Below are positions 5,138-64,000 of a stretch of 64,000 nucleotides of DNA, piece by piece. The position numbers were made by a program, and so were the translations under genes. The notes beneath the pieces were generated by a model, which was not told the DNA's origin, did not search any database, and saw only the letters and a program-made list of their open reading frames with translations. Where the stretch lies: the NCBI GenBank assembly GCA_964355675.1, contig CAYHEC010000014.1, positions 1,110 to 65,109 on the forward strand. Reading direction: 5' to 3'. Numbering within the stretch: the first letter of the stretch is position 1; every line of letters starts with the position of its first letter. The stretch comes from an uncultured Caldithrix sp. GTDB lineage: Bacteria > Electryoneota > AABM5-125-24 > Hatepunaeales > Hatepunaeaceae.

Positions 5138-6193
5138 TCAGATGAATCTCAACTGGAAGTTGTTCGAATGAGCTTCTTCAATCAGTTTATTATATAGTTG
5201 TCGTTGACTCGCAGATAGATTTATCACGTTAAAACCGAGAGCAGTTGACAGTTTAAGTACCGGAATTACTGCATATTCTCTATGACCGATGAACACGCAG
5301 TGAAGATTTGTAAAAAGCACCATTTTAATAATGCCGTCCTTAATGTCATCCTCTGACGGCATGGCTCCATGCTTTGTGTGTTTTGCTTCAATAAGCCTAA
5401 CGTCAGAACCTGTGATTTCACATTCATCTAATGTCAGGCTATATTCACCTCCGAGATAGTTGATCACTGTGATCGATGCCTTTTGACCTTCCACAGATTC
5501 TTTGGGTTGAAGAGTCACTATTTCACGCTGTTGTGCGCTACGAGCAAGAAATCTGGATCTTGCAAGAAAAGTCTCACGGCTCATATAAATCTCTTCAAGT
5601 TTACGCACGGCGGATTTTCTGTTGTGCATTGAGATTCCTAAACTGGCCCCAATTCTATCGTAGAATTGAAGAGATTTTTGGCATACCGATTCCAAGCGAT
5701 TTGGATCGGTCTGCTCAATATTCCAATGCAGTGCATCAGACTGGCAATCCATTAGATTGGATAGTTGTTGACGGATATATTCCATATTGAATTGCTGATG
5801 AGATATTTTCCCTTGATATCGAGTGCTTGCGATTGCGTTGTCATAGTATGCAATGATAACGTTCACGCCGAGCAAACTCATCAAGCAAATTGTATCCCAT
5901 TGGAGGAAATCCCGATCACCTTCTCCACCTTCGTCTTTCATAACGGGGATTATTGTGACCTTCTTCCCTGTAAAACCGTAAGTGTTGTATACGCGAGCAT
6001 ACGGATAAGAGCGGGTTCTTTTCGGTGATACCCACCTACTTACCGCAATTTTCCCTTTTACTCCAAAATCGAGAAGAAACGATGCATCTCGCGATTCGAA
6101 GGCCTGCACCATTGACTCAATGAGATAGGTGTGTAGATCGTTACACATCAAAGGACGATATATAACACTCTTAATTTTGCCCGTAACTTCCAT
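5138..6193 (-). CDS. Putative type II restriction endonuclease (PD-(D/E)xK)
   Basis: The start is placed at the internal ATG 6193 (MEVTGK...), which has GGAGG 9 nt upstream and overlaps the methyltransferase 3' end by 23 nt. C-terminal motif LDECEI...VRLIEAKH fits D-Xn-E-x-K. AT-rich like its partner. Confidence 0.6.
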   Translation of the reverse strand: MEVTGKIKSVIYRPLMCNDLHTYLIESMVQAFESRDASFLLDFGVKGKIAVSRWVSPKRTRSYPYARVYNTYGFTGKKVTIIPVMKDEGGEGDRDFLQWDTICLMSLLGVNVIIAYYDNAIASTRYQGKISHQQFNMEYIRQQLSNLMDCQSDALHWNIEQTDPNRLESVCQKSLQFYDRIGASLGISMHNRKSAVRKLEEIYMSRETFLARSRFLARSAQQREIVTLQPKESVEGQKASITVINYLGGEYSLTLDECEITGSDVRLIEAKHTKHGAMPSEDDIKDGIIKMVLFTNLHCVFIGHREYAVIPVLKLSTALGFNVINLSASQRQLYNKLIEEAHSNNFQLRFI

Positions 6194-7082
6194 GTCGGAT
6201 ATCCTCCAGTAAAGATTTAAACTGTTCTTTCGACAACCTCCTATCCAAATCACGAGACAGGTCTCGCGTTCTCACGTCAACGGCGAAAAAATCGCTGTTA
6301 CTCATTAGATCAGGCAAACCGACTTTCTTTCGAATTATTTCTTGAAGTTCCGATTTTATTTCAAATCCGACACTATTACGTCCGAGCAAACGTGCTACTT
6401 TCATCGTAGTTCCGCTTCCTGCAAATGGATCTAGAACTATTTCTCCAGTATATGAGTAGAGCTTTATTAGGCGATAGGGCAACTCTTCCGGAAATGCTGC
6501 TACGTTTTTCTCTAGAACAGCTCCAGGAAGCACGTTTGTCATTTCCCAGAGAGTCATGTACCATTTTTTCTGTTGGAATTCTGCTTTATCTATCATAGAT
6601 GATATGCGGACATCCTGCGGAATAGACTTGTATTCGAATTTTCCCTTTTGAAAAATAATTATACTCTCCAGCAGATTATCTGGATAAAAGTACATCGGAT
6701 AGGGATTTTGGAGAATAACTCCACTTCTGCGACTAATCCGAAGATAACCGTCTGGCTTCTTCCATATAAGCCTATCCCTGTAACGAAAGCCTGCTCGCTG
6801 AAAAATTTTCGTTGCATCAGCAGTGATTGGGAATTTCTCTCCTTTTACTAACATATCATCGATATTAAGAGCTACGATCCGTCCGGGCTGTAACACCCGA
6901 TAGACCTCTTGCGCTACATTGTACAAGACTTCTAAATAATGGTCATACGTATCATACAGTCCCTCGTAATCGAAAGGAGCATTGAAGTACGGCGGAGATG
7001 TGACCATCAAATGCACGCTCTCGTTTTCAAGCTCTTGCATTGACTGACAATCACCGATAATCAATTTATGTGATGTTCCCAA
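6171..7082 (-). CDS. Beta-class N4/N6 DNA methyltransferase (SPPY type, possibly m4C)
   Basis: 303 aa. Motif IV TSPPY is near the N-terminus and motif I DPFAGSGTT near the C-terminus (beta-class order). TTG start with AGGAAA upstream. Confidence 0.85.
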   Translation of the reverse strand: MGTSHKLIIGDCQSMQELENESVHLMVTSPPYFNAPFDYEGLYDTYDHYLEVLYNVAQEVYRVLQPGRIVALNIDDMLVKGEKFPITADATKIFQRAGFRYRDRLIWKKPDGYLRISRRSGVILQNPYPMYFYPDNLLESIIIFQKGKFEYKSIPQDVRISSMIDKAEFQQKKWYMTLWEMTNVLPGAVLEKNVAAFPEELPYRLIKLYSYTGEIVLDPFAGSGTTMKVARLLGRNSVGFEIKSELQEIIRKKVGLPDLMSNSDFFAVDVRTRDLSRDLDRRLSKEQFKSLLEDIRHGSYGQN

Positions 7083-7787
7083 TTCTATTCTATTTCCTTA
7101 AATTTGAATTTAATGATACCTTTTCTTCCGGTGAGGCTTTCTTATTAGCCTCAAGCCACCCAGCCGCTGGTTTTCCCATTAAAGGTCAGATCGTTCCCCA
7201 ACACGACGATATTCTTCGCAGTGTCAGCGACAATCTCTATATGGCTCGTGTCAAGGTTGAACTTTCGCGCCGCCAACCGATTGGCTTCAAGCATTGATTA
7301 CTGAATTCTCCGATTGTTTAATCTCCCCGCCCCAATTTATTGTATAAATGTCGCGAGGATACGTCTATCTTATTTTTTTTCGCTTTAGCGGGAAAGTTAT
7401 GGGTTCACGTCGTTTTCAACCTGTTAGTGTGAAAATGCCTATTGCGAACGTCAGCACTTCTACCTCTACCGCCCGACCGCCTCGCCTCGCCTTCGGCGAA
7501 ACGCCCGTTCTACCGACAATACCAATCTATTCCAAAATCTGCCCCAAGTCAATAGCAAACAGAAGCGGCGTCAGACAAGGACATCTGACGCCACTTAAAT
7601 TATTCAGTAGGGCAGGTCGGGACGCCCTGCCCTACTGAGATTGCTTGCTACACTCGCAGTGATCGATCTCATAAAATTACCAGTCCGATCACGAATCGAT
7701 CACAGAGTTTCTCATTGTAGCGCAACAAAATACGCCGCTCTGTGACTCAGTGATCGATTTTTGACCCCTCACTACTCTAAGTTCACC

Positions 7788-7813
7788 GCCCGGTCTTATC
7801 CGGGCTTTTTCTT
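7788..7813 (+). terminator. Rho-independent terminator with no upstream ORF
   Basis: GCCCGG-tcttat-CCGGGC followed by TTTTTCTTT. It lies 77 nt upstream of the valS start and downstream of an ORF-free structured region. Confidence 0.6.
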
Positions 7814-7889
7814 TGCTACCAAGCCCTGATTTCAGTATATTAACAGGTTAAGTCATTCCAAAATCCAAATTCCAAAATCCAAAACTATA

Positions 7890-10658
7890 ATGTCCGAAAT
7901 TCCAAAGAGCTACGATCCGACCTCCGTCGAGCCGAAGTGGTACAAATTCTGGGAAGAGAACGACCTCTTCCGCACCGATCCGAACTCCGGCAAGGAGCCG
8001 TACTGCATCATGATGCCTCCGCCGAACGTCACCGGCGAACTTCACATGGGGCACGGCTTGCAAGACTCCCTGCAGGATATGCTGATCCGCATGAAGCGGA
8101 TGCAGGGCTTCGAGGCGCACTGGCAAGCCGGAACCGATCACGCCGGCATCGCTACCCAGAACGTCGTCGAGAAAGCGCTCGCCAAGGAAGGCGTGTCGCG
8201 CCACAGCCTCGGCCGGGAGAAGTTCATCGAGAAGGTCTGGGAGTGGAAAGCCAAGTACGGGGACAGGATACTCCAGCAGAAGCGGCTCTTAGGTGACTCG
8301 CCGGACTGGAGCCGCGAACGGTTCACCTTCGATCCGGGGCTTTCCAAAGCCGTGGCGAAGGTGTTCGTGCATCTCTATGACAAGGGGCTGGTGTATCGGG
8401 GGAATTACATCGTCAACTGGTGTCCGCGCTGTCACACGGCGATCTCTGACGAGGAAGTCGATCATAAGGACGAAGCGACGCATTTGTGGTATTTCAGGTA
8501 TCCGATTTTAAATGATTCTTCCGTCGCCGCCCCGTCGGCGATGGATACTGATACACCTGCTGCCACCCACAGGGGGGTGGCAGAAGAGGGACACTACGTG
8601 ACTGTGGCGACGACGCGCCCTGAGACGATGCTGGGCGATACGGCGGTGGCGATCAATCCCAAAGACGAACGATTGCAGCATCTTCGCGGGAGGAGCGTGC
8701 AGCTCCCATTGGTGGATAGAGTTATCCCGATCATTGAAGACGAGTTCGTCGATCCGGCTTTTGGGACGGGGCAGGTGAAAGTGACGCCTGCTCATGATCC
8801 GAACGACTTTGAGATGGGGAAGCGCCACAGCCTCGGATCCATCACAGTGATGGACGAGCATGGGGTAATGAATGATAACGCTGGTCGTTTCAAAGGATTG
8901 GATAGGTTCAAGGCGCGTGAGGCGATTGTGGAGGCGATGGGGGAGGCGGGGTTGTTGGAGAAGATAGAGGATTATACTACCTCCATTGGCCACTGCTCGC
9001 GGTGCAAGACGGTCATCGAGCCGTACCTCTCTCTGCAGTGGTTCGTGAAGATGAAGCCACTCGCCGAGCCTGCCCTTGAGGCTGTTCGTGACGGGCGGAT
9101 CAAGTTCTATCCGGGACGTTGGGAGAAGGTCTATTACTCATGGCTGGAGAACGTGCGGGACTGGTGCATCTCGCGGCAGCTTTGGTGGGGGCATCGGATA
9201 CCGGTGTGGTACTGCCAGGCTTGCGGGGAGGTGATTGTCAGGGAAGAGGAGCCTGATACTTGTCCGAAGTGCCACTCGAACAGTCTCAGGCAGGATGAGG
9301 ATGTGCTCGATACGTGGTTTAGTAGCTGGCTCTGGCCATTTTCAACCTTGGGGTGGCCCGAAGAGACGCCTGAGCTTAAAAAATGGTATCCGACGCAGTT
9401 GCTCGTTTCGGGCTATGACATCATCTTCTTCTGGATCGCGCGGATGATTATGGCGGGGCTGGAATTCATGGGCGACATCCCGTTCAGCGACATCTTCATT
9501 ACGGGCATGATTAAGGACGAGCAGGGGCGGTGGATGTCGAAGTCGCTCGGCAATGGCATCGACCCGGAGGCGATGGTCAAGCAGTACGGGGCCGACGCGG
9601 TGCGGTTCACTATGATAACGCTGGCGACGGAGGGGCAGGACATCAAGCTAACGCCGTCGCGGTTTGAGGGAGGGAGGAATTTTGCCAATAAACTGTGGAA
9701 TGCGTACCGGTTTCTGATGACTCATGTGGAGAAACTGCCTGAGGAAAATAGGAGCCAAATTGGCAAGTATCCAATCACTGAGATGCCTTCCGATGCTCCC
9801 CTCGTGGATCGGTGGATTGTCTCACGACTGGCGGCGACGGTCGAACAGGTTCATGCGTCGGCGGAGAAGTACCGGTTGTTTGAGTGTCTTAACGCCCAGT
9901 ATGATTTCCTCTGGAAGGAGTTCTGTGACTGGTATCTGGAGCTTATTAAAAACCGGTTGACGCCTGAGACTCCGGCATTTGACCGTCAGTTGACGCTTGA
10001 GGTCGCGTTGCAGGTATTCGAAGCGGCGATGCGGCTGTTGCATCCGGCGATGCCGTTTGTGACGGAAGAGATTTGGCAGGGAGTTTCAGCACAAGTAGCG
10101 TTGACAATTGTCAACGCTACTGCAACTCAGAAGTCGATTATGGTGGCGGAATATCCGAAGCCGGGGGAATATCCAAGGGACTTGAAGGCTGAGGAGCAGA
10201 TCGAGTTGTTCCAGCGTGTCGTTGCGGCAGTCAGGAACATTCGTGGCGAAATGCATGTTCCACCCGACCGGAGGGCAGTACTGGTAGTGTCGGGCGTGAA
10301 AGATGAAGGGAAGAAGATGTTATTTGAGCGGCTGTCAAGTGATATTTGTCGTCTCGCAAACTTGTCGGAAATCAGCTTTGGCAACTCTCGCCCGGCACAC
10401 TCAGCTTCGGCAATGATAGATGATTTCGAGCTGTTTGTGCCGTTGGAAGGCTTGATCGACATCACGGTAGAACAAGGGAGACTCGACAAGGAGATTGCGA
10501 GACTTGAAGGCTCGATCAAAGGCGCTGAGGCAAGGCTTGCTTCGCCAAACTTCACTGACAAGGCTCCGGCGAATGTGGTGGAGTTTGAGCGGCAGAAGTT
10601 GGTGGAGTCGAAGGCACAGCTTGAGGCGGTGAAAAGGAATAGGGAGGCGTTGGAATGA
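7890..10658 (+). CDS. valS: Valine--tRNA ligase
   Basis: 922 aa. HIGH motif (PPNVTGELHMGH), KMSKS motif (WMSKSLGN), ValRS segment ATTRPETMLGDTAV, C-terminal coiled coil. Carries an in-frame hairpin-containing insertion at about 8520-8600. Confidence 0.97.
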   Translation: MSEIPKSYDPTSVEPKWYKFWEENDLFRTDPNSGKEPYCIMMPPPNVTGELHMGHGLQDSLQDMLIRMKRMQGFEAHWQAGTDHAGIATQNVVEKALAKEGVSRHSLGREKFIEKVWEWKAKYGDRILQQKRLLGDSPDWSRERFTFDPGLSKAVAKVFVHLYDKGLVYRGNYIVNWCPRCHTAISDEEVDHKDEATHLWYFRYPILNDSSVAAPSAMDTDTPAATHRGVAEEGHYVTVATTRPETMLGDTAVAINPKDERLQHLRGRSVQLPLVDRVIPIIEDEFVDPAFGTGQVKVTPAHDPNDFEMGKRHSLGSITVMDEHGVMNDNAGRFKGLDRFKAREAIVEAMGEAGLLEKIEDYTTSIGHCSRCKTVIEPYLSLQWFVKMKPLAEPALEAVRDGRIKFYPGRWEKVYYSWLENVRDWCISRQLWWGHRIPVWYCQACGEVIVREEEPDTCPKCHSNSLRQDEDVLDTWFSSWLWPFSTLGWPEETPELKKWYPTQLLVSGYDIIFFWIARMIMAGLEFMGDIPFSDIFITGMIKDEQGRWMSKSLGNGIDPEAMVKQYGADAVRFTMITLATEGQDIKLTPSRFEGGRNFANKLWNAYRFLMTHVEKLPEENRSQIGKYPITEMPSDAPLVDRWIVSRLAATVEQVHASAEKYRLFECLNAQYDFLWKEFCDWYLELIKNRLTPETPAFDRQLTLEVALQVFEAAMRLLHPAMPFVTEEIWQGVSAQVALTIVNATATQKSIMVAEYPKPGEYPRDLKAEEQIELFQRVVAAVRNIRGEMHVPPDRRAVLVVSGVKDEGKKMLFERLSSDICRLANLSEISFGNSRPAHSASAMIDDFELFVPLEGLIDITVEQGRLDKEIARLEGSIKGAEARLASPNFTDKAPANVVEFERQKLVESKAQLEAVKRNREALE

Positions 10659-12271
10659 TTATGCCAGAACTTCAAACAAATGTCCTCTACTACGGGGATA
10701 ATCTTGAGGTCTTGAGAGATCAAATTCCTAATGAATCAATTGATCTCATATACCTTGACCCTCCGTTCAATTCTAAGCAGTCATACAGTGTCCTATTCCG
10801 CGAATCGTCGGGAGCTGCAAGTGAAGCTCAAATCGAAGCATTCGAGGATACTTGGCAATGGACTATAGACGGCCAGGCACCCAAAGCCTACGACGCTATC
10901 ATGACCGGGCCGAGGCAGGACGTTGCGAGCTTGTTAGGCGCTATGGTGCAAGGACTTGGTCGCAATCAAGTTACATCCTATCTCTGCATGATGACGGTCA
11001 GACTGGTGGAACTGCACCGTGTTCTGAAAGCGACGGGGAGCCTTTACCTTCATTGTGATCCAACCGCTGGAGCCTATCTTCGAGTTATTCTCGACGCGAT
11101 TTTTGAGCCAGTCAACTTTCGCAACGAGATCATTTGGAAGCGAACATCGGCTCACAACGACCCAAGGAAATACGGAGCGAATATTGACGTAATCTGGTAT
11201 TACGTGAAGAGTAGTAAGAACACTTGGAATGATGTTTTCACTGAGCATCGTGAAGAGTATCTCAAGCGATTCACTCATAGAGACTCAGATGGTCGAGCAT
11301 GGCAAGACGGCCCGCTGACAGCAAAGGGACTGACTGGCGGAGGATATACCTATGAGTATAAAGGTATTAAAGGATTCTGGCGCTGTCCTCTGGCAACAAT
11401 GGAAAGGTATGACAAAGAAGGGCTCTTGCACATCACAAATAGGAATGGAATACGGATAAAGCGCTATCTTGATGAAACTGAAGGTGTGATACTTCAATCA
11501 CTCTGGACAGACATCCCACCTGTAAATTCACAAGCTAAGGAGCGATTGGGTTACAATACTCAAAAGCCTCAAGCCTTGCTCGAGAGAATAGTTTCAGTTT
11601 CATCCAATCCCGGTGATATCGTCCTTGATCCATTTTGCGGTTGTGGTACCGCACTTCACGCCGCCCACAAGCTTGACCGTAAATGGATAGGAATTGACGT
11701 AACTTATCTCGCAATCAACCTTATCGAACGAAGAATGCGTGATGCTTTTCCTGGCGTCCCGATTCATGTCGATGGTGCTCCAGCTGATACAGCCAGTGCT
11801 CACGATCTTGCTCGCAGAGACAAGTATCAATTTCAATGGTGGGCACTCGCCAAGATCGACGCTCAACCAGTATCAGGCAAGAAGAAAAAGGGTGCGGACA
11901 AGGGCAAAGACGGAGTTATTCCTGTTTTTATGGATGCTGAAATCAGTTATAGGAACGCGATAGTTTCCGTTAAGGGCGGCGCAGATCGCGACGTAAGTGA
12001 TATAAGGGACTTGAACGGAACTATGTTGAGAGAAAACACACCGTTTGGTGTTCTTATTACGTTGTTTCCGCCAACCAAACCAATGATAACTGAAGCGGCA
12101 TCGGCGGGACTCTATGAAAGTGAATTCTGGGGTAGAAAATTTCCTAGGATTCAAATTCTATCAGTCGAAGAGATCTTTCAAGGGAAACGTCCGAATCTTC
12201 CCAAAGGCAAATCGCCTTATGCAAAAGCTCCGGTTGAAAAAACGGTCAATGGAAATCTCAATTTAGATTGA
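10655..12271 (+). CDS. Beta-class DNA methyltransferase fused to a C-terminal Mrr-like PD-(D/E)xK domain
   Basis: 538 aa. Motif IV LDPPF (N-terminal) and motif I DPFCGCGTA. The C-terminal ~150 aa carry GADKGKDGVI...VSVKGG, resembling the Mrr catalytic core (D-G-x-D ... x-K). The start ATG overlaps the valS TGA (ATGA). Confidence 0.7.
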   Translation: MIMPELQTNVLYYGDNLEVLRDQIPNESIDLIYLDPPFNSKQSYSVLFRESSGAASEAQIEAFEDTWQWTIDGQAPKAYDAIMTGPRQDVASLLGAMVQGLGRNQVTSYLCMMTVRLVELHRVLKATGSLYLHCDPTAGAYLRVILDAIFEPVNFRNEIIWKRTSAHNDPRKYGANIDVIWYYVKSSKNTWNDVFTEHREEYLKRFTHRDSDGRAWQDGPLTAKGLTGGGYTYEYKGIKGFWRCPLATMERYDKEGLLHITNRNGIRIKRYLDETEGVILQSLWTDIPPVNSQAKERLGYNTQKPQALLERIVSVSSNPGDIVLDPFCGCGTALHAAHKLDRKWIGIDVTYLAINLIERRMRDAFPGVPIHVDGAPADTASAHDLARRDKYQFQWWALAKIDAQPVSGKKKKGADKGKDGVIPVFMDAEISYRNAIVSVKGGADRDVSDIRDLNGTMLRENTPFGVLITLFPPTKPMITEAASAGLYESEFWGRKFPRIQILSVEEIFQGKRPNLPKGKSPYAKAPVEKTVNGNLNLD

Positions 12272-13269: not shown

Positions 13270-14652
13270 ATGGTACCAATGCCAACAAAACTATCACTTG
13301 CGTCAGCGCTTCTGCTAAGCTCCATTTTCCATTTTCCATCTTCCATTAAAGCCGAAGTCGCCGTTACCATTTACAACCAGAACCTCGCCCTCGTCCGCGA
13401 GGTGCGCCAGCTTGACTTCCCCAAGGGCGTCGGCCAACTCCGCTTCACCGACGTCGCGTCGGAGATTATCCCGACGTCAGTGCACTTCACCAGCGACAAA
13501 GCCGCACTCCTCGAGCAAAACTACGAGTACGACCTCGTGAGTTCGGACAAACTGCTCGAGAAATACATCGATCAACGGGTGGAGATTGTTTCGCTTGACG
13601 GCAAGAGCTTTTTCGGGTCGTTACTATCGTCGGGAGGGGATATTGTGCTAAGGTTAGATGGTGGGACACCCCCCCCTGCCCCCCCCGCAAGCGGGGGGGG
13701 AAAGTCTGGCGAATTGGTCTCGATTACCCGTTCGCAGGTTGCCAATGTCCGGTTCCCTGAGCTACCGGAAGGACTCATCACCCGCCCGACACTAGTCTGG
13801 CTGGTCGATGGCAAGGGCGGCAAGAGCGACGCTGACATCTCCTACCTGACGAGAGGAATCTCGTGGGAATCGGAGTATGTTGCCGTCTCGGACGTAAAGG
13901 ACGAAAACCTCTCACTGACCGGGTGGGTGAACATTACGAATAATTCCGGGGCGACGTACAAGGATGCGCGGTTGAAACTGATGGCAGGGGACGTGAATAT
14001 CGAACAGCCTCGAAGAAAATTCGCACGCGACGAAGTTCAAGAATTGTCAGGCGGATTTAATGCTGAATACGGTTTTCAAGAACAAGCGTTTTACGAGTAC
14101 CACCTCTATACCCTTCAGCGTCCCTCGACCATCGCCGACAAGCAGGTGAAGCAAGTGTCGCTGTTTCCGACGGCTTCAACGCCGGTGAAGAAGGAATTCC
14201 GACTCAAGGCGAACGAGGAAAAGGTTACAGTTGTCCTTGAGTTTGAAAACCGTGAGAAGGTCGGGCTGGGCATACCGCTTCCCAAGGGGAAGGTGCGGGT
14301 CTATAAGCAGGGTCCTGATGGCGGGCAGGAATTCATCGGCGAAGACAACATCGACCATACTCCCAAGGATGAAAAAGTCCGCATCACGACCGGTAAAGCG
14401 TTTGATATTGTTGGCGAGCGGAAATCGATCAACTACGAGCGCCAAGGCAAACAGCGTGAGAATGAGATTGTCGTCCGCAATCATAAGAAGGAGACCATCG
14501 AGGTTGTCATCGAAGACTCGTTCTGGGGGGATTGGAAATTTATCGAAGCGACCGACGGCTGGGAGAAGAAGAATGCCAGCCTCGTTGAGTGGAAAGTGAA
14601 GATCAAGCCGGACGGGGAGGCGAAGGTTAGGTATAAGGTTTATGTTAATTAA
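13270..14652 (+). CDS. Secreted DUF4139/DUF4140-like protein
   Basis: 460 aa with a signal peptide. VTIYNQNLALVRE...LEQNYEYDLVS resembles the DUF4139 family (from memory). The internal low-complexity patch GGTPPPAPPASGGGKSG is encoded by a hairpin repeat at 13681-13698. Confidence 0.55.
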   Translation: MVPMPTKLSLASALLLSSIFHFPSSIKAEVAVTIYNQNLALVREVRQLDFPKGVGQLRFTDVASEIIPTSVHFTSDKAALLEQNYEYDLVSSDKLLEKYIDQRVEIVSLDGKSFFGSLLSSGGDIVLRLDGGTPPPAPPASGGGKSGELVSITRSQVANVRFPELPEGLITRPTLVWLVDGKGGKSDADISYLTRGISWESEYVAVSDVKDENLSLTGWVNITNNSGATYKDARLKLMAGDVNIEQPRRKFARDEVQELSGGFNAEYGFQEQAFYEYHLYTLQRPSTIADKQVKQVSLFPTASTPVKKEFRLKANEEKVTVVLEFENREKVGLGIPLPKGKVRVYKQGPDGGQEFIGEDNIDHTPKDEKVRITTGKAFDIVGERKSINYERQGKQRENEIVVRNHKKETIEVVIEDSFWGDWKFIEATDGWEKKNASLVEWKVKIKPDGEAKVRYKVYVN

Positions 14653-14701: not shown

Positions 14702-16390
14702 ATGAAAGCGGCCAAATACGCGCTCGTAATCGTGCTGTGCTGGTTGTCGATGAGTGCTTGGGCGGAATGGGGGAGGGCGCCTAATGAAGCCATTCGAGCT
14801 CCCGCCGTGGGGCAGACGCTTTGCTCCGATGGTCAGGGCGGCGTCTGGTCGGGAAGCTTGGGATGGTTCTGCCATATCGACCGAAATGGTAATCCGACGT
14901 GGAATGCAGAGCCCTGTTTGCGCGGCTTTCAGAATTTGGGCAGGGATACGTCCAGCTACCCAGCAGACCAACGTACAGCGGTAAATGGCAGATTGGCGCT
15001 TGTCGGTATAAATGATTACATCTGGGGGATTTCGCGGAATGGTCCGCACCCTTGGGAATATATCATTGGCTATAGAGCGTGGGTTCAGCTTGTTTCTATC
15101 GATGGCGAACAGCTCTGGCGCAGAGGGGGAATACCATTGGACAGCGCCTTCGAATGGTCATACGTTTTCGGCGTTTATCCGGGGCCAACGGAGGGGACTT
15201 TTCTCGTTCATTGGGGTAAAGGATTTGAATGGACTGAGGGCAGTTCCGAACCAATGCTCCAACTCGTGAACAGCGATGGGGAGTTTCTTTGGGGTGATTT
15301 TGGAGTAAGACTCGACTGGGACAATTCGAACTCTTATTTCACCAAGTGGGAGGATGATTGCTTTATCGTCGCACAGAATGTCTGGCCGAATCCGACAATC
15401 GCAGTAGTGAAGTATGATTTGGAAGGTGAAGTAGTATGGGAACAGCGATTGCCGACGTTTGCCGAGGGGGTAACATTGTGCTCAATTAACGACATCGAGT
15501 CCGACCGTGCGGGAGGAGCGATCCTGACTTATTCGTTTTTGCGTGAGGTTATCATCGGGGGAAATCCAATCCAGTACGTAGGAGTCAATGTGTTGCGAAT
15601 ATCCGGCGGGGGGGACTCTCTTTGGACGAGGCAGGTATTCGAGCGGAGAAGAAATGGAGCAGAAGAGTTTTGGAGGACTGAACCGATTATTAACTATGGC
15701 GGGGAGGGAACGTATCTGATCGCCTGGAATGATCACGGGCCCAATGAAATGCAGACAGTAGCCCTTGATCTCGATGGTGAATTTCTTTGGGAATCGCCTG
15801 AGGTAATTGTCCTTTCTGCCGGGTATCAAAACCATTTGGCAGGCGTAGATTCGGAAGGTGGAATCTGTTATGTCTGGGCAGACTGGGAGGAGCGCGAGCG
15901 GCCCAGTACGCAAGTCTGGGGTCAGCGAATCAGCAATGAGGGCGAAAGGCTTTGGGGGGATAGAGGCATACCGCTTATCTACGATGACGGAGAAGCATTG
16001 AAAGCTGTTACTGAATGTAATGGTGGAATGATCGTGGCAAACTTGAGGCTGTTGCAAATGGTCAACCGCGACGGTGAAATCGGGGTCGTTTTGCCGGTCG
16101 GAGTGGGTGATGATTACAGTAACGATCCGGCGCTTCCGGGGGCGTTTAGTGTCGAACTCTACCCGAATCCGGTCAATTCTCACTTCAGGATAGTGTTCGA
16201 TGCGGCAGTTCCAAATCAGACATACAGCTACAGCCTCTTTGACGGGGCGGGGAGGTCGGTAGATTCAGGGGAGATTCTGAGTGTCGGTTCATTTGAAGGG
16301 GATCTGTCACAACTGGCGAGCGGGCAGTACTTCCTGAGGCTGAAATCGAAGAAGGCGTCGGTGACGAAAGGGTTCAGTCTGGTCAGGTGA
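14702..16390 (+). CDS. Secreted protein with T9SS C-terminal sorting domain
   Basis: 562 aa. Signal peptide MKAAKYALVIVLCWLSMSAWA. C-terminal LYPNPVNSHFRIVF...GQYFLRLKS...SLVR is typical of Por/T9SS CTDs. Confidence 0.7.
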   Translation: MKAAKYALVIVLCWLSMSAWAEWGRAPNEAIRAPAVGQTLCSDGQGGVWSGSLGWFCHIDRNGNPTWNAEPCLRGFQNLGRDTSSYPADQRTAVNGRLALVGINDYIWGISRNGPHPWEYIIGYRAWVQLVSIDGEQLWRRGGIPLDSAFEWSYVFGVYPGPTEGTFLVHWGKGFEWTEGSSEPMLQLVNSDGEFLWGDFGVRLDWDNSNSYFTKWEDDCFIVAQNVWPNPTIAVVKYDLEGEVVWEQRLPTFAEGVTLCSINDIESDRAGGAILTYSFLREVIIGGNPIQYVGVNVLRISGGGDSLWTRQVFERRRNGAEEFWRTEPIINYGGEGTYLIAWNDHGPNEMQTVALDLDGEFLWESPEVIVLSAGYQNHLAGVDSEGGICYVWADWEERERPSTQVWGQRISNEGERLWGDRGIPLIYDDGEALKAVTECNGGMIVANLRLLQMVNRDGEIGVVLPVGVGDDYSNDPALPGAFSVELYPNPVNSHFRIVFDAAVPNQTYSYSLFDGAGRSVDSGEILSVGSFEGDLSQLASGQYFLRLKSKKASVTKGFSLVR

Positions 16391-16734: not shown

Positions 16735-18933
16735 ATGGCAAAATCTAACAACATAGGTGTCAACGGCAGAGCGTTGACAGCTTCCGGGGTCACTGCCACC
16801 CGCAGGGGGGTGGCAGAAGTTCCTGCATCTTCCGTCACCCCCCCGCGGGTGACGGACAAACTCAAATGGAACGACCCCGTCGCTCTGGTAAAAGGGCTTG
16901 GCGAACAGCGCGCCGAATTCCTTGTCTCGCAAGGATATGCCACCATCGGCGATTTGCTGATGCGTGCACCGCTTCGCTACATCGACCGCCGACAATCGCC
17001 ACCATTTTCCACGTTGACGACGCCTTCCGCTGGTGAGATCAGCGCCGTCGGCGTCATCGAAGCAGTCGGCGAGAAAGGGTTCGGTCGAAAAAGGCGACTG
17101 ATCTGCATTATTTCGGATGGGACGGGAATCGTGCAAGGGGTCTGGTTCAAGAATTATCATTTTTACAAGCCGGAATTGACTCCGGGTCGAAAGATTGCCT
17201 TGAGTGGCAGGATTACCATATTCGACGGTCCGCAGATCACTCACCCGAAGGTGACTTACCTTGACGGTGACCGGAATCTGCCTGGTGAAGCGTCGCTGGT
17301 GCCGGTCTATCCTTCGGGTGATGAGTGGGAGAAAGCCGGACTTTCCAAGCAAGTGTGGCCCCGATTGATCGCCAAAGTCATTAAAGATTGGGATGGAGAA
17401 GGTCCGTACCTGCCGGAGAATATCCGTGGTCTCTGCAAATACCCGACACTCCGCGATGCGGTTACTGCATTACATCAACCCAACGGGCTTGAGGATTTCG
17501 ACCGGGGTCTGGAGGCGCTGAAATTCACTGAGCTTTATCATCATCAATTGCTAATGGTTGTTTTGCGCAGGCGAAGAAGGCAGGGCGATGGAATTGTCAT
17601 CGGGTCGCAAGGCGAAAGATTTCCCTTATTCTTGAGACAATTACCGTTTGAACTCTCGCCGAGTCAACAGGAAGTGTTGGGTGAGATTAGTGAAGACTTC
17701 TGCTCGGGTCACCCCATGCATCGATTGTTGCAGGGGGAAGTCGGGTCGGGGAAGACTGTGGTCGCGCTGGCGGCGGCGGTTCATTCGGCTGATTCAGGCT
17801 ATCAGACTGCCATGATGGCTCCGACGGAAATACTTGCCCGGCAACACTATAAGAACGCAATCGAGTATTGCGAACCGGTCGGGATGAAAGCCGTCATGAT
17901 CAGCGGGGGGCGAGACGCCGACGAAAACCGACGAGCGCTTTTCGAGGCGTCGGTCGGTAAGGCTGATATTATTATCGGCACGCATGCCCTGTTTCAAGCT
18001 CGCGTCGAAATGCCTCGCCTCGGTTTGGCGGTGATCGACGAGCAACATCGGTTTGGAGTTCGGCAACGAGCGTTGCTGGTTGGCAAGGGAGTGCGGCCGC
18101 ACGTCCTGTTAATGTCGGCGACGCCTATTCCGAGGACGTTAGCGCTGGCTCATTACGGGGATCTTGAGTTGTCATTTCTGAAGCCTCCCCCCGGCATCGA
18201 AAGGCGCGTAAAAACACGTATCGTCAATGATTCGCGTCGTGATAAAGTATTCGGTTGGTTAAAGGAAGAATTGAAGAAGGGGCGTCAGGGATTTCTCGTT
18301 TTTCCAGTGATCGACGAAAGCGCAACCGGTCTTGAAGCCGCTGAAGCTCGTTATATTCCGTACAGTACGATCGACTTCAAAGGAATTCCGACGGCGCTTA
18401 TTCATGGGCGGATGCCGATCGATGAGCGGGTTAGGGTGATGGATTCGTTCCGTAGGGGGGATGTGAAGCTACTGATGACGACTTCGGTGATCGAAGTCGG
18501 AGTTGACGTGGCGGAAGCAACGATTATGGTTATCGAAAACGGCGAGCGGTTCGGGTTGTCCCAGCTTCATCAACTTCGTGGAAGAGTAGGAAGATCGGGC
18601 AGAACGGGAACGTGTGTAATTATCTCTTCGGAACGAGAGGGGCAGACAGGATTCGAACGAATCCGTAAACTCGAGACGACTTCTGACGGGTTAGAGCTTG
18701 CTGAGGAGGATCTGAGGCAAAGAGGGGCGGGTGACCCGCTTGGAGCGCGACAGAGTGGCTGGGTAAAATTCAAGCTTGCCGATCTGACAATGGATTACAA
18801 ATTATTAGAAAAGGCGCACCTTTCAGCGCTGGAAACGCTGGATACATGGCCAGACCTCGAACCCTTCCCAGAGATAAGAGCCAAATTGAAGCAGGAATAT
18901 CGCAATAGACCGAAGACGATGTTGGCGGGGTGA
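16735..18933 (+). CDS. recG: ATP-dependent DNA helicase RecG
   Basis: Walker A GEVGSGKT, DEQH box VIDEQHRFG, motif VI HQLRGRVGRSG. The first 38 codons are built from three hairpin repeats, so an alternative GTG start at 16849 is plausible. Confidence 0.93.
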   Translation: MAKSNNIGVNGRALTASGVTATRRGVAEVPASSVTPPRVTDKLKWNDPVALVKGLGEQRAEFLVSQGYATIGDLLMRAPLRYIDRRQSPPFSTLTTPSAGEISAVGVIEAVGEKGFGRKRRLICIISDGTGIVQGVWFKNYHFYKPELTPGRKIALSGRITIFDGPQITHPKVTYLDGDRNLPGEASLVPVYPSGDEWEKAGLSKQVWPRLIAKVIKDWDGEGPYLPENIRGLCKYPTLRDAVTALHQPNGLEDFDRGLEALKFTELYHHQLLMVVLRRRRRQGDGIVIGSQGERFPLFLRQLPFELSPSQQEVLGEISEDFCSGHPMHRLLQGEVGSGKTVVALAAAVHSADSGYQTAMMAPTEILARQHYKNAIEYCEPVGMKAVMISGGRDADENRRALFEASVGKADIIIGTHALFQARVEMPRLGLAVIDEQHRFGVRQRALLVGKGVRPHVLLMSATPIPRTLALAHYGDLELSFLKPPPGIERRVKTRIVNDSRRDKVFGWLKEELKKGRQGFLVFPVIDESATGLEAAEARYIPYSTIDFKGIPTALIHGRMPIDERVRVMDSFRRGDVKLLMTTSVIEVGVDVAEATIMVIENGERFGLSQLHQLRGRVGRSGRTGTCVIISSEREGQTGFERIRKLETTSDGLELAEEDLRQRGAGDPLGARQSGWVKFKLADLTMDYKLLEKAHLSALETLDTWPDLEPFPEIRAKLKQEYRNRPKTMLAG

Positions 18934-60314: not shown

Positions 60315-62084
60315 TTACTTCAATAAAACGGCTCGGATCATCTTCCTGACTCCACCACTTTCAACACCTACCAGATAAAGTCCGACGGGCAGTCCATCGC
60401 CATTGATCGACAGACGATTCTCGCCTTTTCCTAAAGATGATACGCCTAAATCACGTAATAATTTCCCCGAAACATCGAAAAGTCCGACTTTGACCAATCC
60501 CGCCTCGCTCAATGAGAATGAGACCTCGGCAACTGGGTTGAACGGATTGGGATACAAGCCGAGCAATTGAAATTCTGAAGGTTTAGTCAGGTTGTCAGGC
60601 TTGACTGCATCGGGAGGAGTAGTAGTGAGGGATATCTCCATGAAGGAGTTTGTCATATATACGACTTGCTCGTTTTGGATGGTCATAGCTTCGGTGATCT
60701 CCTCGCTGTCGCCAACAGCATACCAGTAAGTAAAAATCAAAGTGTCACTGTCTCTTGCCCCATCGACGGCCTCGGTCATATCGTCGTCACCCCAGACTGT
60801 CAGCAACAATGTATCGCCCGAAATCACTCCCGCCCCCAAAGGTAATCCTTCCACGGAACTGACGCCTAACTCATCGCCATTGGAAATCTCACCCAGAAGA
60901 CTCCAACTGCTGACCGCGATGGACATCGAACTTCCAGTGTTGGTTCCATTCGAGAATTGGGTCGGCAACGACGGCGCAGTGGGCGGCTCAAGATTACGAT
61001 CAGGTTCAGGCCAGATGAATTCAAATGGCTCATTCGTCACGCTCAATATCTGCAATCCATTACCCGGTAAAATCATCGGTAAATCAGATAAAGCGAGACC
61101 AGGGATGGCAAAGTTGCCCCGCCCGTCACGAACTATGCTCGCTCTATCTCCGATCAGATCCATAACTTGGCTCGGATGGATCGTATCTAAGCGCGGATAG
61201 GAAATCCAGTTCCAGCCGCTCTCTACGGGATAAGAATGTGAGGGATCGACGAACTCGCCGGAGAATTTGATCTCTGCATCTTCAGTAACTTTGATCTGAT
61301 AACTGCTAAACACCATCCAGTTGCCGATCTCGTTCACTCGTTCAGCCGGATTGAAAATTCTTCCGGCGGCGTCACGGAGGACGATAAGCGATCCTGCGTC
61401 GATCAACGGGGCAAAAAGGTTTGCTACCATTATCGAATCGGGAGCTACAGGTGCGGAGATCAAATTCCAGCCGCTTGCAACTGTCACGATTATCGAATCA
61501 GGTGGTGGAGGTGGCGGCGGTGGTTCCGCTTCGGCGAGGGTGCGTTCGGAGCCGTAAATCCGGTCACCGCTACTGTTGTCATTGTTGTTTGCGGCATTCC
61601 CGCAAAAGTAAAATGTAATTTCACCGGTTCCTTCGCGCGGAGCCGTCCAGTCGAAGATCCAGGAGGCGCTGTTGGCTTGCCTTGGGAATGTGCCCGCGCT
61701 ACGGTGTTTCAAGTACTGAGGCTGGTTGTTATTGTTGCTTAGTTGAGTGGCTTGCTGATTGACAACGGCGAGATTGCCGCCGCGGGAATTATTGGAAGTA
61801 AGCGCTGTTAATTCGAATCCCCAGCGTCGAGCGTTTGGGTCGGCTAAAGCCAGAGTGAGACGATAGGTCTCGCCCGGCTGATAACTTTCGGGCAATCCCT
61901 GAAGATTAAGAGTACCTTGTCCGCTATTGAACGCAAAGGACGAGTGGCACTCGGTGCAGTTCTGTTGGTTCGGAGGGCTGTTGGTCAAGCCATCATCGGG
62001 TCCGCCGGAACGAGCCAACAGGAACGAGGGCATGAGTAGCAAGGTAAAAAGCGAAACAAACCGGGTCATTTTATTTTTGGGCAT
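60315..62084 (-). CDS. T9SS-sorted surface protein with one N-terminal CxxCH haem-binding motif
   Basis: 589 aa. Signal peptide, CTECH 20 residues after the predicted cleavage site, an Ig-like region, a PPPPPPPP linker, GWN(L/W)IS repeats, and a C-terminal LYPNPFNPVAEVSF...YLVGVESGG...VLLK sorting domain. Confidence 0.65.
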   Translation of the reverse strand: MPKNKMTRFVSLFTLLLMPSFLLARSGGPDDGLTNSPPNQQNCTECHSSFAFNSGQGTLNLQGLPESYQPGETYRLTLALADPNARRWGFELTALTSNNSRGGNLAVVNQQATQLSNNNNQPQYLKHRSAGTFPRQANSASWIFDWTAPREGTGEITFYFCGNAANNNDNSSGDRIYGSERTLAEAEPPPPPPPPDSIIVTVASGWNLISAPVAPDSIMVANLFAPLIDAGSLIVLRDAAGRIFNPAERVNEIGNWMVFSSYQIKVTEDAEIKFSGEFVDPSHSYPVESGWNWISYPRLDTIHPSQVMDLIGDRASIVRDGRGNFAIPGLALSDLPMILPGNGLQILSVTNEPFEFIWPEPDRNLEPPTAPSLPTQFSNGTNTGSSMSIAVSSWSLLGEISNGDELGVSSVEGLPLGAGVISGDTLLLTVWGDDDMTEAVDGARDSDTLIFTYWYAVGDSEEITEAMTIQNEQVVYMTNSFMEISLTTTPPDAVKPDNLTKPSEFQLLGLYPNPFNPVAEVSFSLSEAGLVKVGLFDVSGKLLRDLGVSSLGKGENRLSINGDGLPVGLYLVGVESGGVRKMIRAVLLK

Positions 62085-62282
62085 TTATAGCTCTTTGAGA
62101 CGGTAATTCGGATCATTAATCTCGATGAGACTAAATTGACTCTATATCTTACGCTCTTATCAATTTTTTGTGGGGATAATTTTCAAATTATAAAGCCTCA
62201 AGCGACGTAAGTCTATTTGTATGACAGTATGCTCTGTCTAACCCGCTAATCGAGCACTAAATTCTTTCCATAGGATCAATTG

Positions 62283-63365
62283 ATGAAATCAATCTCCCAA
62301 TCCCTGCTATTGATAGCAACCATCGTTTTGATAGCGAACGAAGCGGTAGCTATGCCGGAATTTGGCGTTCGATACAATCAGAGTTGCCAACTGTGTCATG
62401 TCGTTCCAACCGGTGGCGGGATGAGAGCCCTCTACGGAGCACAGTTCTTCAGCTACATGGACTTGCCTATGAAAGAGCTTGATGATTTCGCCCTTCTCGA
62501 CTCGATCAATCCGAAAATAGGAAGGCATTTTCAGGTCGGCGTCGATTTTCGTTCGCTTTACTATAGTTCCAATGATACTCTTTCAGGTAACAGTTTTGTG
62601 ACCATGGAAGGGACGCTTTACACCACAATTGCCCCGACAGACCGAACCATGGTTTACCTTTCGCGATCACTGTATGGTTCCAGTGAGGCTTTTGCTCTAA
62701 TACAGGGATTGCCTTACTCCTCGGTATTTAGAGGGGGCCGGTTTATGCCTGCCTATGGTTGGAAGTTTGTCGATCATAACAGCTATGTCAGAAGCCGCCT
62801 TGGCTATGGTCAAGGCAAAGGCGCCGAGGATGGTTTGGAGTACGGATTCTACCCGTTGGAATGGGAGGCGTCCGTTGCCTTGACTAACGGATCGTTGGGG
62901 ATTGTCGATGGCAATCGCGGGAAAGTGTTAACCACAAGGGCTTTGAAGAGATTAGTTGCAGGATATTTCAATATAACCGGGGGTATGAGCTGGCGCTACG
63001 CGGAATTCGATATGGGTAAGGGGTTGGCGACGCCGGGCTTGCAACGATATGGCGGACCGTTTTGGGGAATAAATTGGGGACCAATCACCTATCTCGGAGA
63101 AATAGACTGGATTGTAACCAGCAAGAGAGAACTCGCTTTAACTCATTCGTTAGGATATATGCTGAAGCGAGGAATGTATGTCACGGCGCAGTACGACTTC
63201 TACGACCCAAATCTGGACGTGAAAAATGGTTATGAGTGGCGCGGGAGAGTCGGCGCGGACCTGTTTCCGACGGGTTATCTTGAACTTCTGCCCGGATTTG
63301 TCTGGGAGCGGCGTTCTGGCAAAGAACATGGAACCGGGGAACTTCAACTCCATGTCTGGTTTTAG
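62283..63365 (+). CDS. Candidate fused monohaem cytochrome-porin (Cyc2-like architecture)
   Basis: Signal peptide (..IANEAVA), CQLCH 12 residues into the mature protein, then about 320 aa of amphipathic beta-strand pattern ending in ...LQLHVWF (C-terminal Phe, as in OM barrels). Confidence 0.45.
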   Translation: MKSISQSLLLIATIVLIANEAVAMPEFGVRYNQSCQLCHVVPTGGGMRALYGAQFFSYMDLPMKELDDFALLDSINPKIGRHFQVGVDFRSLYYSSNDTLSGNSFVTMEGTLYTTIAPTDRTMVYLSRSLYGSSEAFALIQGLPYSSVFRGGRFMPAYGWKFVDHNSYVRSRLGYGQGKGAEDGLEYGFYPLEWEASVALTNGSLGIVDGNRGKVLTTRALKRLVAGYFNITGGMSWRYAEFDMGKGLATPGLQRYGGPFWGINWGPITYLGEIDWIVTSKRELALTHSLGYMLKRGMYVTAQYDFYDPNLDVKNGYEWRGRVGADLFPTGYLELLPGFVWERRSGKEHGTGELQLHVWF

Positions 63366-63405
63366 TACAAAAACTGAACCCGGCAAACTTTAATATTGTG
63401 GTACT

Positions 63406-63606
63406 CTTGGAGGGCGGACTTTCAGAGTTCGTTGATTTATTCGCTTGGGACGCCAATTCGGACAAGATTCTCTTGGAGGGGGGGCTTCAGCCCGCCCTTG
63501 TTTGTGCTTGATTGTCCTTTAGGGGGGGCTGAAGCCCCCCCTCCAAGAGGATCAAATCTCTACTCGAACGAATAAATCAACGAACTCTGAAAGTCCGCCC
63601 TCCAAG
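63406..63606. repeat. 201-bp nested palindrome (MITE-like)
   Basis: Perfect 38-nt inverted arms: CTTGGAGGGCGGACTTTCAGAGTTCGTTGATTTATTCG at 63406-63443 with its reverse complement at 63569-63606. They enclose two inner family-D-like hairpins (63471-63500 and 63521-63548). Confidence 0.9.
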
Positions 63607-63650
63607 AAGATTAGATCACACAGGCTAAAACTCTCAAAGGAATAAATAAA

Positions 63651-64000
63651 GTGATAAATTCAATTCGTTCAATTCGGTGGGGCGTGTTAATTGCAGGCTT
63701 CGCACTGATTGCTGGTTGTAGCGACAGCGGAGACAAGACTCCGACAGGTGGGAATAACGCGCCGGTATTACGAGCGGTATGGAGGGGTAATGAAGGGATA
63801 GGTCAGCTCTTGATGCAGAGTTGCACCCCCTGCCACACAGCTCAGAGCCAGAACGGCTTTAATGTTTCCACTCACAACAACATCATGTCAAATGGCGACA
63901 TTATTGCGGGAGATTCGACCGATGCCAGCTACTTTACGAAGAAGTTGACTGGCGATCCCGACGCCGGGGCACGGATGCCTCAAGGCGGGCCATACTTATC
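63651..64000 (+). CDS. Lipoprotein monohaem cytochrome c (PSCyt1-like), 3' end beyond window
   Basis: GTG start. Lipobox LIAGC. CTPCH followed by ...IIAGDSTDASYFTKKL...MPQGGPYL, resembling the planctomycete-type cytochrome c domain. The ORF runs off the window, so it is absent from the ORF track. Confidence 0.6.
   Translation, partial: MINSIRSIRWGVLIAGFALIAGCSDSGDKTPTGGNNAPVLRAVWRGNEGIGQLLMQSCTPCHTAQSQNGFNVSTHNNIMSNGDIIAGDSTDASYFTKKLTGDPDAGARMPQGGPYL

Follow-up and report, generated by a model that had tools for sequence, protein, structure and literature searches.

The closest described counterparts of the locus reported here are the fused cytochrome-porins of the Cyc2/Cyt572 type (e.g., in Acidithiobacillus ferrooxidans, Mariprofundus ferrooxydans PV-1, and Leptospirillum), the periplasmic dihaem Fe(II) oxidoreductase FoxE of Rhodobacter ferrooxidans SW2 and, in general idea, the MtrCAB, MtoAB/PioAB, and Geobacter Pcc conduits, in which an outer-membrane barrel works with periplasmic and surface cytochromes. 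Keffer et al. 2021 (PMC8406198) describe Cyc2 as a 16-strand porin with a signal peptide and a single CXXCH; the motif AXPXFAR[Q/K][T/Y], which they call unique to Cyc2, stands upstream of the CXXCH, and PXL a few residues downstream. The Cyc2 barrel was modelled there on the Porin_O_P fold, and sequences with fewer than 365 amino acids (aa) were left out of the data set; the corresponding limit in the FeGenie paper is 375 aa. We analysed three adjacent genes, each carrying one CxxCH, at the end of a 64,000-nt stretch (hereafter, the window) from an uncultured Caldithrix sp. (GenBank assembly GCA_964355675.1, contig CAYHEC010000014.1, positions 1,110 to 65,109). Gene 1 (60315..62084, minus strand) is an open reading frame (ORF) of 589 aa whose product is predicted to be secreted, gene 2 (62283..63365, plus strand) encodes a predicted fused monohaem cytochrome-porin of 360 aa counted from its ATG, and gene 3 (63651..64000, plus strand), which runs past the window end and shows 116 of its ~133 codons, encodes a putative monohaem c-type cytochrome lipoprotein of the PSCyt1/FoxE-like kind. 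We conclude that the three genes belong to a single conserved system built around the barrel and the gene 3-type cytochrome, and that the cluster probably moves electrons across the cell envelope.

Gene 2 and the Cyc2 family

The predicted product of gene 2 shares with Cyc2/Cyt572 a signal peptide, a single N-terminal CxxCH, a 16-strand porin barrel, and an aromatic residue at the C-terminus. Its signal peptide closes with ...ANEAVA, before MPEF, and is followed by the N-terminal cytochrome module (62352..62519, plus strand; mature residues 25 to ~80), which reads AMPEFGVRY-NQS-CQLCH-VV-PTGGGMR. The CQLCH (62385-62399; residues 36-40), which is the single CxxCH of the protein, lies 12 residues into the mature chain. 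The beta-barrel of 16 predicted strands (62529..63362, plus strand; residues 84-361) ends in HVWF and includes the conserved His358 (63351-63353), whose side chain, judging from the alternating strand pattern, would point toward the lumen. An alternative TTG start at 62280 would give a protein of 361 aa; the ATG start has an AGGA motif 7 nt upstream, and the database protein P0001 is also 360 aa long.

The AlphaFold2 (AF2) model of gene 2, made with 28 homologues, has a predicted local distance difference test score (pLDDT) of 81 and a predicted template modelling score of 0.79, and places a short helical N-terminus with the haem motif ahead of 16 strands; its Foldseek neighbours are porins of 16 to 18 strands (E to 4e-10). 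In an alignment of 29 diverse family sequences, reaching down to 22% identity, C36, C39, H40, G45, and R49 are invariant, and so is a set of barrel glycines and charged residues. The first-pass annotation of this DNA, made from the letters of the window, had read gene 2 as a signal peptide, a CQLCH 12 residues into the mature chain, and a barrel with a terminal Phe. The ORF, the 16-strand model, the porin matches, and the invariant Cys/Cys/His all agree with that description.

The same annotation had assigned gene 2 to the Cyc2/Cyt572 type. To this assignment the architecture and a remote homology lend support, and the published motifs and length do not. We collected Cyc2 genes by back-translating the published motif, which gave 88 full-length ORFs from Mariprofundus and other Zetaproteobacteria, Acidithiobacillus, Nitrospira defluvii, and Chlorobiaceae. 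With hhalign, the gene 2 family matched this Cyc2 set over 327 columns (98.7%, E 2e-16), its N-terminal cytochrome part alone matched the Cyc2 N-terminus (97.3%, E 2e-11), and the barrel alone matched the Cyc2 barrel (~94%, E ~1e-7; reversed control 0.1%); reversed-sequence controls across the comparison with Cyc2 gave 0.1-0.3%. The profile of the 88 Cyc2 sequences, a stand-in for the FeGenie hidden Markov models (HMMs), scored gene 2 at 20.9 bits, and the family members P0102 and P0132 aligned to it almost over their full length, at 48-52 bits. One gene 2 family member falls just under the Porin_O_P cut-off. The upstream pattern A-x-P-x-F...[T/Y]-x3-CxxCH is common to Cyc2 and the gene 2 family. 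These profile comparisons make the gene 2 family a true homologue of Cyc2, though a remote one.

In place of AXPXFAR[Q/K][T/Y], gene 2 reads A-M-P-E-F-G-V-R-Y, and FAR[Q/K][T/Y] was found in none of 56 gene 2 family members against 100 of 102 Cyc2 sequences, a comparison in which only the family count is informative, as the Cyc2 set was retrieved by that motif. Downstream of the haem site, gene 2 reads CH-VV-P-T-G, and PXL is absent from all 56 family members but present in 95 of the 102 Cyc2 sequences. The family has NPxGGG-x-R instead: NPxGG follows CH in 49/56 members and in 0/102 Cyc2 sequences, and an Arg stands at CH+9 in 55/56. The family signature consists of this stretch together with a His at position -4, counted from the C-terminus, a residue that 52 of the 56 members and none of the 102 Cyc2 sequences have. 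The median length from CxxCH to the end is 329 residues in the gene 2 family vs 400 in Cyc2, which is thus ~70 residues longer, and gene 2 itself, at 360-361 aa, is below the 365 aa of the published set. Both locus sets (family and Cyc2) were gathered by motif DNA patterns, and counts of those motifs are therefore partly circular; the His at position -4, PxL, the neighbour counts, and the sequences from unbiased searches are independent of the collecting patterns. Because gene 2 departs from Cyc2 in FAR[Q/K][T/Y], in PxL, and in the length of at least 365 aa, the gene 2 family is, judged by its sequence features, a distinct sister family of Cyc2 and not Cyc2.

The sister family is large and taxonomically broad. 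A word-indexed search gave just 31 relatives of gene 2, whereas an exhaustive profile search gave 2,875 cluster representatives (50% identity) at E <= 1e-3 and 456 representatives at E <= 1e-30, mostly 355-420 aa long. Neither Pfam nor NCBIfam has a model for this family or for canonical Cyc2, and the members of the family's clusters are annotated merely as 'hypothetical protein'. By a genome scan with the family's own signature, CxxCH-x-NP-x-GGG, barrel-fused members were located in Gammaproteobacteria (Cellvibrio, Roseateles, Aliiglaciecola, and Steroidobacteraceae) and also in Bacteroidota, Ignavibacteriota, Chlorobiota, Marinimicrobia, Bdellovibrionota, and Myxococcota. In one family locus, L141, the N-terminus of the barrel gene lies in another frame (6861-7061 and 7001-7960) and the haem motif is lost, owing to a frameshift error or to decay into a pseudogene. 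The haem module of the gene 2 type (AxPx[FY]AxxTGxxCxxCHxNPxGGG) also occurs free-standing, in proteins of 84-200 aa of Alphaproteobacteria and Chloroflexota (L187 5299-5553, L165 6616-6873, L177 1185-1769, and L189 2240-2824), which argues that it is an independent mini-cytochrome domain. The Chloroflexota copy in L177 has a class I cytochrome c domain as its fusion partner.

Predicted partner cytochromes and gene linkage

Gene 3 begins with a lipobox, LIAG-C, with Cys23 at 63717-63719, followed by CTPCH (63822-63836; residues 58-62) and by an RMP motif with the predicted distal Met (63975-63977), all on the plus strand. As its homologues in other loci are 133-147 aa long with a single haem domain, ~17 residues of gene 3 should lie beyond the window end. 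The partial gene 3 in the window matches Pfam PSCyt1 weakly (16.1 bits, under the cut-off of 22), and full-length homologues clear the cut-off (29.6 vs 22 bits). The lipobox Cys, C56, C59, H60, M107, and P108 (alignment numbering) are invariant in the gene 3 family alignment, a pattern that suggests a class I cytochrome c with His/Met as its predicted haem ligands. The gene 3 family profile matches FoxE (PDB 5MAB) at E 1.4e-12 with both FoxE haem domains aligned, an alignment that starts at CxxCH, takes in the methionine of R-M-P, and ends with the C-terminal helix W-I-x-x-G-A; ranked next after FoxE are hydrazine synthase alpha, by its haem domain, and cytochromes c6. FoxE, however, is a dihaem protein of two domains encoded in the foxEYZ operon, whereas gene 3 has one haem domain and encodes a lipoprotein beside a porin-cytochrome gene. 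Our literature search on PSCyt1 function found nothing relevant.

The product of gene 1 is ordered as a signal peptide stopping near residue 25, a choice-of-anchor V domain with a haem c motif (61551..62042, minus strand; residues 15-178), a poly-proline linker, a middle region, and a type A C-terminal sorting domain of the type IX secretion system (T9SS; 60342..60557, minus strand; residues 510-581 of 589). The haem c attachment motif is CTECH (61944..61958, minus strand; residues 43-47). The linker (P188-P195; 61500..61523, minus strand), read from the sequence, separates the haem domain from the remainder and is also seen in the gene 1 homologue of locus L004. The sorting domain scores above the cut-offs of both relevant models (Pfam PF18962, Por_Secre_tail, 31.7 bits vs 27; TIGR04183, 26.7 bits vs 23), and residues 15-178 score 119.3 bits against a cut-off of 42 with NCBIfam NF041895, the choice-of-anchor V model (MXAN_6652 family). 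Typical choice-of-anchor V members are ~285 aa long; gene 1, at 589 aa, is about twice that length owing to its extra middle region of ~300 residues, for which there was no Pfam match and no PDB sequence match.

In the AF2 model (pLDDT 78.6), the choice-of-anchor V domain of gene 1 is a Reeler-like beta-sandwich whose top Foldseek matches in the PDB are the F-spondin reeler structures 3coo/2zot (E 3e-9, 24-26% identity). Spondin-1 (F-spondin) is also matched by the gene 1 family profile on sequence (E 1e-5), and Pfam Reeler (PF02014) is present in several gene 1 relatives. Eukaryotic Reeler domains, which are found in F-spondin and ferric-chelate reductase 1, thus resemble gene 1 in fold and weakly in sequence but are without its CxxCH. 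Among the 122 gene 1 family members, 121 have C-x(2-4)-CH at the same N-terminal position (104 CxxCH, 10 CX3CH, and 7 CX4CH), the sole member without it being a truncated fragment; CX3CH and CX4CH are known variants of the haem c attachment site. Close relatives further share invariant R87, W88, G89, F90, E91, T93, K126, and H127. Because the C-x(2-4)-CH is conserved and both fold and sequence match Reeler domains, the reading that suits the domain best is a Reeler-fold cytochrome of the c type with one haem, the attachment of which is predicted from motif and model. Our literature searches yielded no paper that assigns a function or a haem to the bacterial choice-of-anchor V domain, and nothing relevant on Reeler domains together with haem.

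That the three genes share a motif is unlikely to be chance: in the window's ORFs of at least 100 aa, CxxCH occurs in these three adjacent genes and in two zinc-knuckle-type motifs in the valyl-tRNA synthetase (ValRS) and nowhere else, against an expectation of ~0.0012 per 1000 aa in its long ORFs. A CxxCH-type motif is retained in the homologues of all three genes. The first-pass annotation had set out three neighbouring genes with one CxxCH each, a T9SS-sorted protein with CTECH close to its mature N-terminus, and a lipoprotein with CTPCH in a PSCyt1-like domain; the ORFs and motifs at these coordinates, the two sorting models, the lipobox, and the homologues above the PSCyt1 cut-off uphold each of these statements.

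Linkage was then counted with HMMs within 4 kb of the barrel gene in 71 family loci and 101 Cyc2 loci. A gene 3-type cytochrome was found in 51/71 family loci vs 1/101 Cyc2 loci, YceI in 17/71 vs 1/101, a choice-of-anchor V protein in 10/71 vs 0/101, and a P460-like protein in 8/71 vs 0/101. Unbiased clustering of neighbours likewise ranked the gene 3-type cytochrome as the top partner (38/47 loci), and extracytoplasmic function (ECF) sigma factors (13/47) and anti-sigma factors (6/47) flanked the loci, recurring in a proteobacterial subset. The Cyc2 neighbourhood is of another kind, with Cyc1, rusticyanin, or oxidase genes, as compared with the PSCyt1/FoxE-like cytochrome, YceI, and choice-of-anchor V genes of the gene 2 family. 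The arrangement of genes 1, 2, and 3 is repeated in L004, with a barrel 59% identical to gene 2, and in rearranged form with YceI in L138, with a barrel 37% identical to gene 2. Barrel, YceI, and gene 3-type cytochrome stand together in L008, L012, L013, L014, and L141; YceI is a family of periplasmic lipid/isoprenoid-binding proteins. L006, L008, and L013 additionally have a dihaem lipoprotein with two tandem Cytochrome_P460-like domains (L008 6984-7970, L006 6756-7787, and L013 6989-7972). In some Zixibacteria and Ignavibacteria relatives the gene for this dihaem lipoprotein is directly upstream of the barrel gene; the window has none.

A reverse test that started from choice-of-anchor V proteins of other phyla gave the same association. 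Two of three loci (in Krumholzibacteriia and a second metagenome-assembled genome, MAG) are co-directional runs of barrel, YceI, gene 3-type cytochrome, and choice-of-anchor V genes, both with an adjacent Crp/FNR-type regulator. In the third, from an Eisenbacteria MAG (L263, 1-6918), the choice-of-anchor V gene divergently adjoins the genes of Alternative Complex III (ACIII; pentahaem ActA, ActB, ActC, and ActD), and this neighbourhood links the choice-of-anchor V domain to respiratory electron transfer. In a distant member of the family (24% identity; L139 1-2016 and L140 627-2765), the partner is a 712-aa lipoprotein encoded directly upstream of the barrel. PSCyt1-like domains form both ends of this lipoprotein (CX4CH and CxxCH) and enclose immunoglobulin-like domains; a gene for a pyrroloquinoline quinone (PQQ)-dehydrogenase-cytochrome lies downstream of the barrel in that case.

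The linkage counts, the L004 and L138 arrangements, and the runs of the reverse test are the grounds on which we regard the three genes as parts of one conserved system. Within it, YceI is a frequent component and gene 1 is an accessory of the lineages of the Fibrobacteres-Chlorobi-Bacteroidetes (FCB) type. The synteny expected of the three genes in relatives was thus found, and it reaches into other phyla as a co-directional run that includes yceI. Together with the predicted barrel and the conserved CxxCH of gene 2, this decides three of the four refuting conditions of the first-pass annotation in its favour. As for the three-gene set first proposed, the linkage stands, and the equal standing of gene 1 does not, since it is clade-restricted and the gene 3-type cytochrome is the general partner; that proposal had also left out the relation of gene 3 to FoxE, the Reeler fold of gene 1, and the frequent YceI component.

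Proposed electron exchange at the envelope and competing readings

Our favoured account, for and against which we see the evidence as about evenly balanced, is that the three genes contribute to a conserved redox module of the outer envelope that works like Cyc2, with a FoxE-like partner and with an electron flow that is most likely inward. Gene 2 would form a 16-strand porin in the outer membrane, and its haem module would exchange electrons with small redox solutes through or at the pore, Fe(II)/Fe(III) being the most plausible solute. Gene 3 would be a membrane-tethered periplasmic cytochrome and the dedicated partner that joins the barrel haem to the respiratory chain. The product of gene 1 would mature in the periplasm, be exported by the T9SS, and be displayed on or released from the surface, where it may serve as an accessory that exchanges electrons with extracellular substrates or hands them to the pore. 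By analogy with Cyc2 and FoxE, the module would oxidise an extracellular donor such as Fe(II), and inward flow is favoured because both of these characterised relatives are Fe(II) oxidases.

The module would differ in construction from the MtrCAB-type conduits. These have barrels of 20 to 26 strands threaded by a decahaem or other multihaem wire, whereas gene 2 has one haem motif fused to a barrel of 16 strands and each of the three proteins has a single haem motif; their surface component is delivered by type II secretion, whereas gene 1 has a T9SS signal. Electron transfer is limited to ~14 angstroms edge to edge, and three single haems therefore cannot bridge the envelope by tunnelling. The 'minimal conduit' of the first-pass annotation, taken as a continuous wire, is accordingly given up, three isolated haems being too few to span the outer membrane and the periplasm. 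The gaps between the haems would have to be filled by diffusing substrates or by mobile tethered domains.

Several further observations weigh against the inward, Cyc2-like account. Gene 2 departs from the Cyc2 motif and length criteria, and the function of Cyc2 is therefore not simply transferable to it. The function of its family would follow from homology, and part of the motif counts that set the two families apart are circular, as given above. Many hosts of the family (e.g., Cellvibrio, Roseateles, and Aliiglaciecola) are ordinary aerobic heterotrophs and not known iron oxidisers. For the distal ligand of the barrel haem, a Met at CH+8 is present in 29/56 members and the C-terminal His in 52/56, and this conserved His hints at bis-His ligation; haems ligated in this way would tend toward potentials lower than is suitable for oxidising Fe(II) with oxygen. 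The choice-of-anchor V gene beside ACIII also weighs against a firm call on direction. Gene 1 is tied to the barrel in FCB-type lineages only and is divergently transcribed in the window. A large hairpin in the spacer between genes 2 and 3 occupies the place where relatives carry yceI, which is absent from the window, and the local cluster may therefore be rearranged. Lastly, no haem maturation genes (ccm, ccs) were found within the 64-kb window.

Some of these points lead to the possibility, which we consider unlikely, that the module works outward. The quinol pool or periplasmic cytochromes would then be the electron source, gene 3 and the barrel haem the route, and the acceptors would lie outside the cell. 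These acceptors could be Fe(III) chelates, humic substances, or oxygen-derived oxidants (as a detoxification), with the surface Reeler-fold cytochrome as the terminal reductase; eukaryotic Reeler domains are, as mentioned, found in a ferric-chelate reductase. The C-terminal His of the barrel and the invariant His127 of gene 1 suggest bis-His haems, which are usually of low potential, ACIII, next to a gene 1-type gene, is a quinol:cytochrome c oxidoreductase, and Crp/FNR-type regulators adjoin two loci. Cluster 3 Cyc2 homologues, too, occur in iron reducers (FeGenie paper). Against outward flow, Cyc2 and FoxE, the solved or characterised relatives, both oxidise Fe(II), the His/Met pattern of gene 3 is typical of class I cytochromes of higher potential, and the loci lack the sort of multihaem cytochromes that known iron reducers employ.

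A role in acquisition or homeostasis of metal or haem, rather than in respiration, appears quite unlikely to us. A redox step at the surface and outer membrane would in this case alter the oxidation state of iron or another metal, to let it through the porin for uptake or to keep it out, and the spread of the family among non-lithotrophic heterotrophs is consistent with such a role. So are the flanking ECF sigma and anti-sigma genes counted above, which are typical of cell-surface signalling and uptake systems, a Fur gene ~3 kb upstream in L008, and genes for MntP and cation diffusion facilitator (CDF) metal exporters near the L004 cluster. These metal-related neighbours, however, vary by locus, no TonB-dependent receptor, ATP-binding cassette (ABC) importer, or FeoB-type transporter is consistently linked, and no Fur box is conserved upstream.

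It is improbable that the genes are mere neighbours, with gene 1 an unrelated surface adhesin or enzyme in which the Cys-Cys-His site binds metal or forms a disulphide, and with genes 2 and 3 cooperating by themselves or not at all. In favour of this reading, gene 1 is divergently transcribed, its type is missing from most family loci (present in 10/71), its motif spacing varies (CX2-4CH), and the middle region of its product is uncharacterised. Against it, linkage of gene 1-type genes with the barrel is seen in at least six independent contexts, among them two tight co-directional runs of other phyla to which the search begun from gene 1 led, and the spacing variants are those known for haem c.

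Surroundings of the cluster and significance

Genes 1 and 2 are separated by a divergent intergenic region (62085..62282) that presumably holds both promoters and contains the perfect palindrome ATAATTT-TC-AAATTAT, which is not kept in relatives. A Fur box in this divergent promoter was considered and rejected (best match 12/19). With the palindrome unconserved and no convincing Fur box, we make no regulatory claim for the region. The spacer between genes 2 and 3 is filled by the giant hairpin (63405..63607), a nested inverted repeat with perfect outer arms of 39 nt and an inner repeat of 33 nt, which folds at -152.6 kcal/mol (z = -17.7). Contigs of three other assemblies of the source organism stop ~90 nt after gene 2, at the hairpin. 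Rfam gave no at-threshold match to it, and the sub-threshold miRNA-like matches reflect its hairpin shape. Its reading as a miniature inverted-repeat transposable element (MITE) was not supported, as its arms have no second copy in the window or in metagenome contigs of the Joint Genome Institute (JGI).

The window yielded no genes of the T9SS machinery (PorK/L/M/N, SprA, and PorV). It contains a second T9SS cargo gene (14702-16390, plus strand; Por_Secre_tail 44 bits), otherwise unannotated and adjoined by a gene for a DUF4139 protein (13270-14652, plus strand), and this cargo gene indicates that the organism uses T9SS sorting signals. The remaining window is housekeeping in nature, with mutS, valS, recG (16735-18933), the dcw cluster, ftsEX, and an ABC-2 exporter. 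The RecG encoded here shares 87% identity with that of a MAG deposited as Caldithrix abyssi (second-best match 61%), which makes Calditrichota the probable host group; Zixibacteria, to which the first named matches of gene 2 had pointed, were set aside on this ground. Around valS there are two N6/N4 DNA methyltransferase genes, with two ORFs nearby (6171-7082, minus; 10655-12271, plus; 2952-4202, plus; 5138-6253, minus); the two ORFs, of 371-416 aa, had no Pfam match, and the group may be remnants of restriction-modification systems.

What is new here is a Cyc2-type fused cytochrome-porin with a distinct set of partners. Our literature searches on T9SS together with cytochromes or extracellular electron transfer, and on Cyc2 together with YceI, found nothing relevant, and they yielded no paper describing a Reeler-fold c-type cytochrome or a holo-cytochrome as T9SS cargo. 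We suggest, tentatively and with more doubt than confidence, that the gene 2 loci represent a widespread and previously unrecognised envelope electron-exchange system, in which a sister family of Cyc2 is always paired with a FoxE-like lipoprotein cytochrome and which in FCB-type lineages is extended by YceI and a T9SS-exported Reeler-fold cytochrome. The T9SS tail on gene 1 suggests that folded holo-cytochromes can be cargo of this secretion system. If the suggestion is true, gene 1 would be the first T9SS-delivered cytochrome, and its domain a new haem-binding fold.

For the family as a whole, the consequences would be wider. The pairing of the barrel with a FoxE-like cytochrome unites relatives of two independently discovered Fe(II) oxidases, and this two-protein system is testable in cultured hosts (e.g., Cellvibrio, Roseateles, Aliiglaciecola, and Cyclobacterium relatives). 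Cyc2 is the chief marker gene from which microbial iron oxidation is inferred in genomes and metagenomes, and the published Cyc2 motif and length filters leave out the gene 2 family despite its identical architecture and true kinship. With ~2,900 representatives of the family at 50% identity, spread over many phyla, marker-gene surveys of iron cycling would, if the proposed system is real, be overlooking thousands of candidate metal-redox loci.

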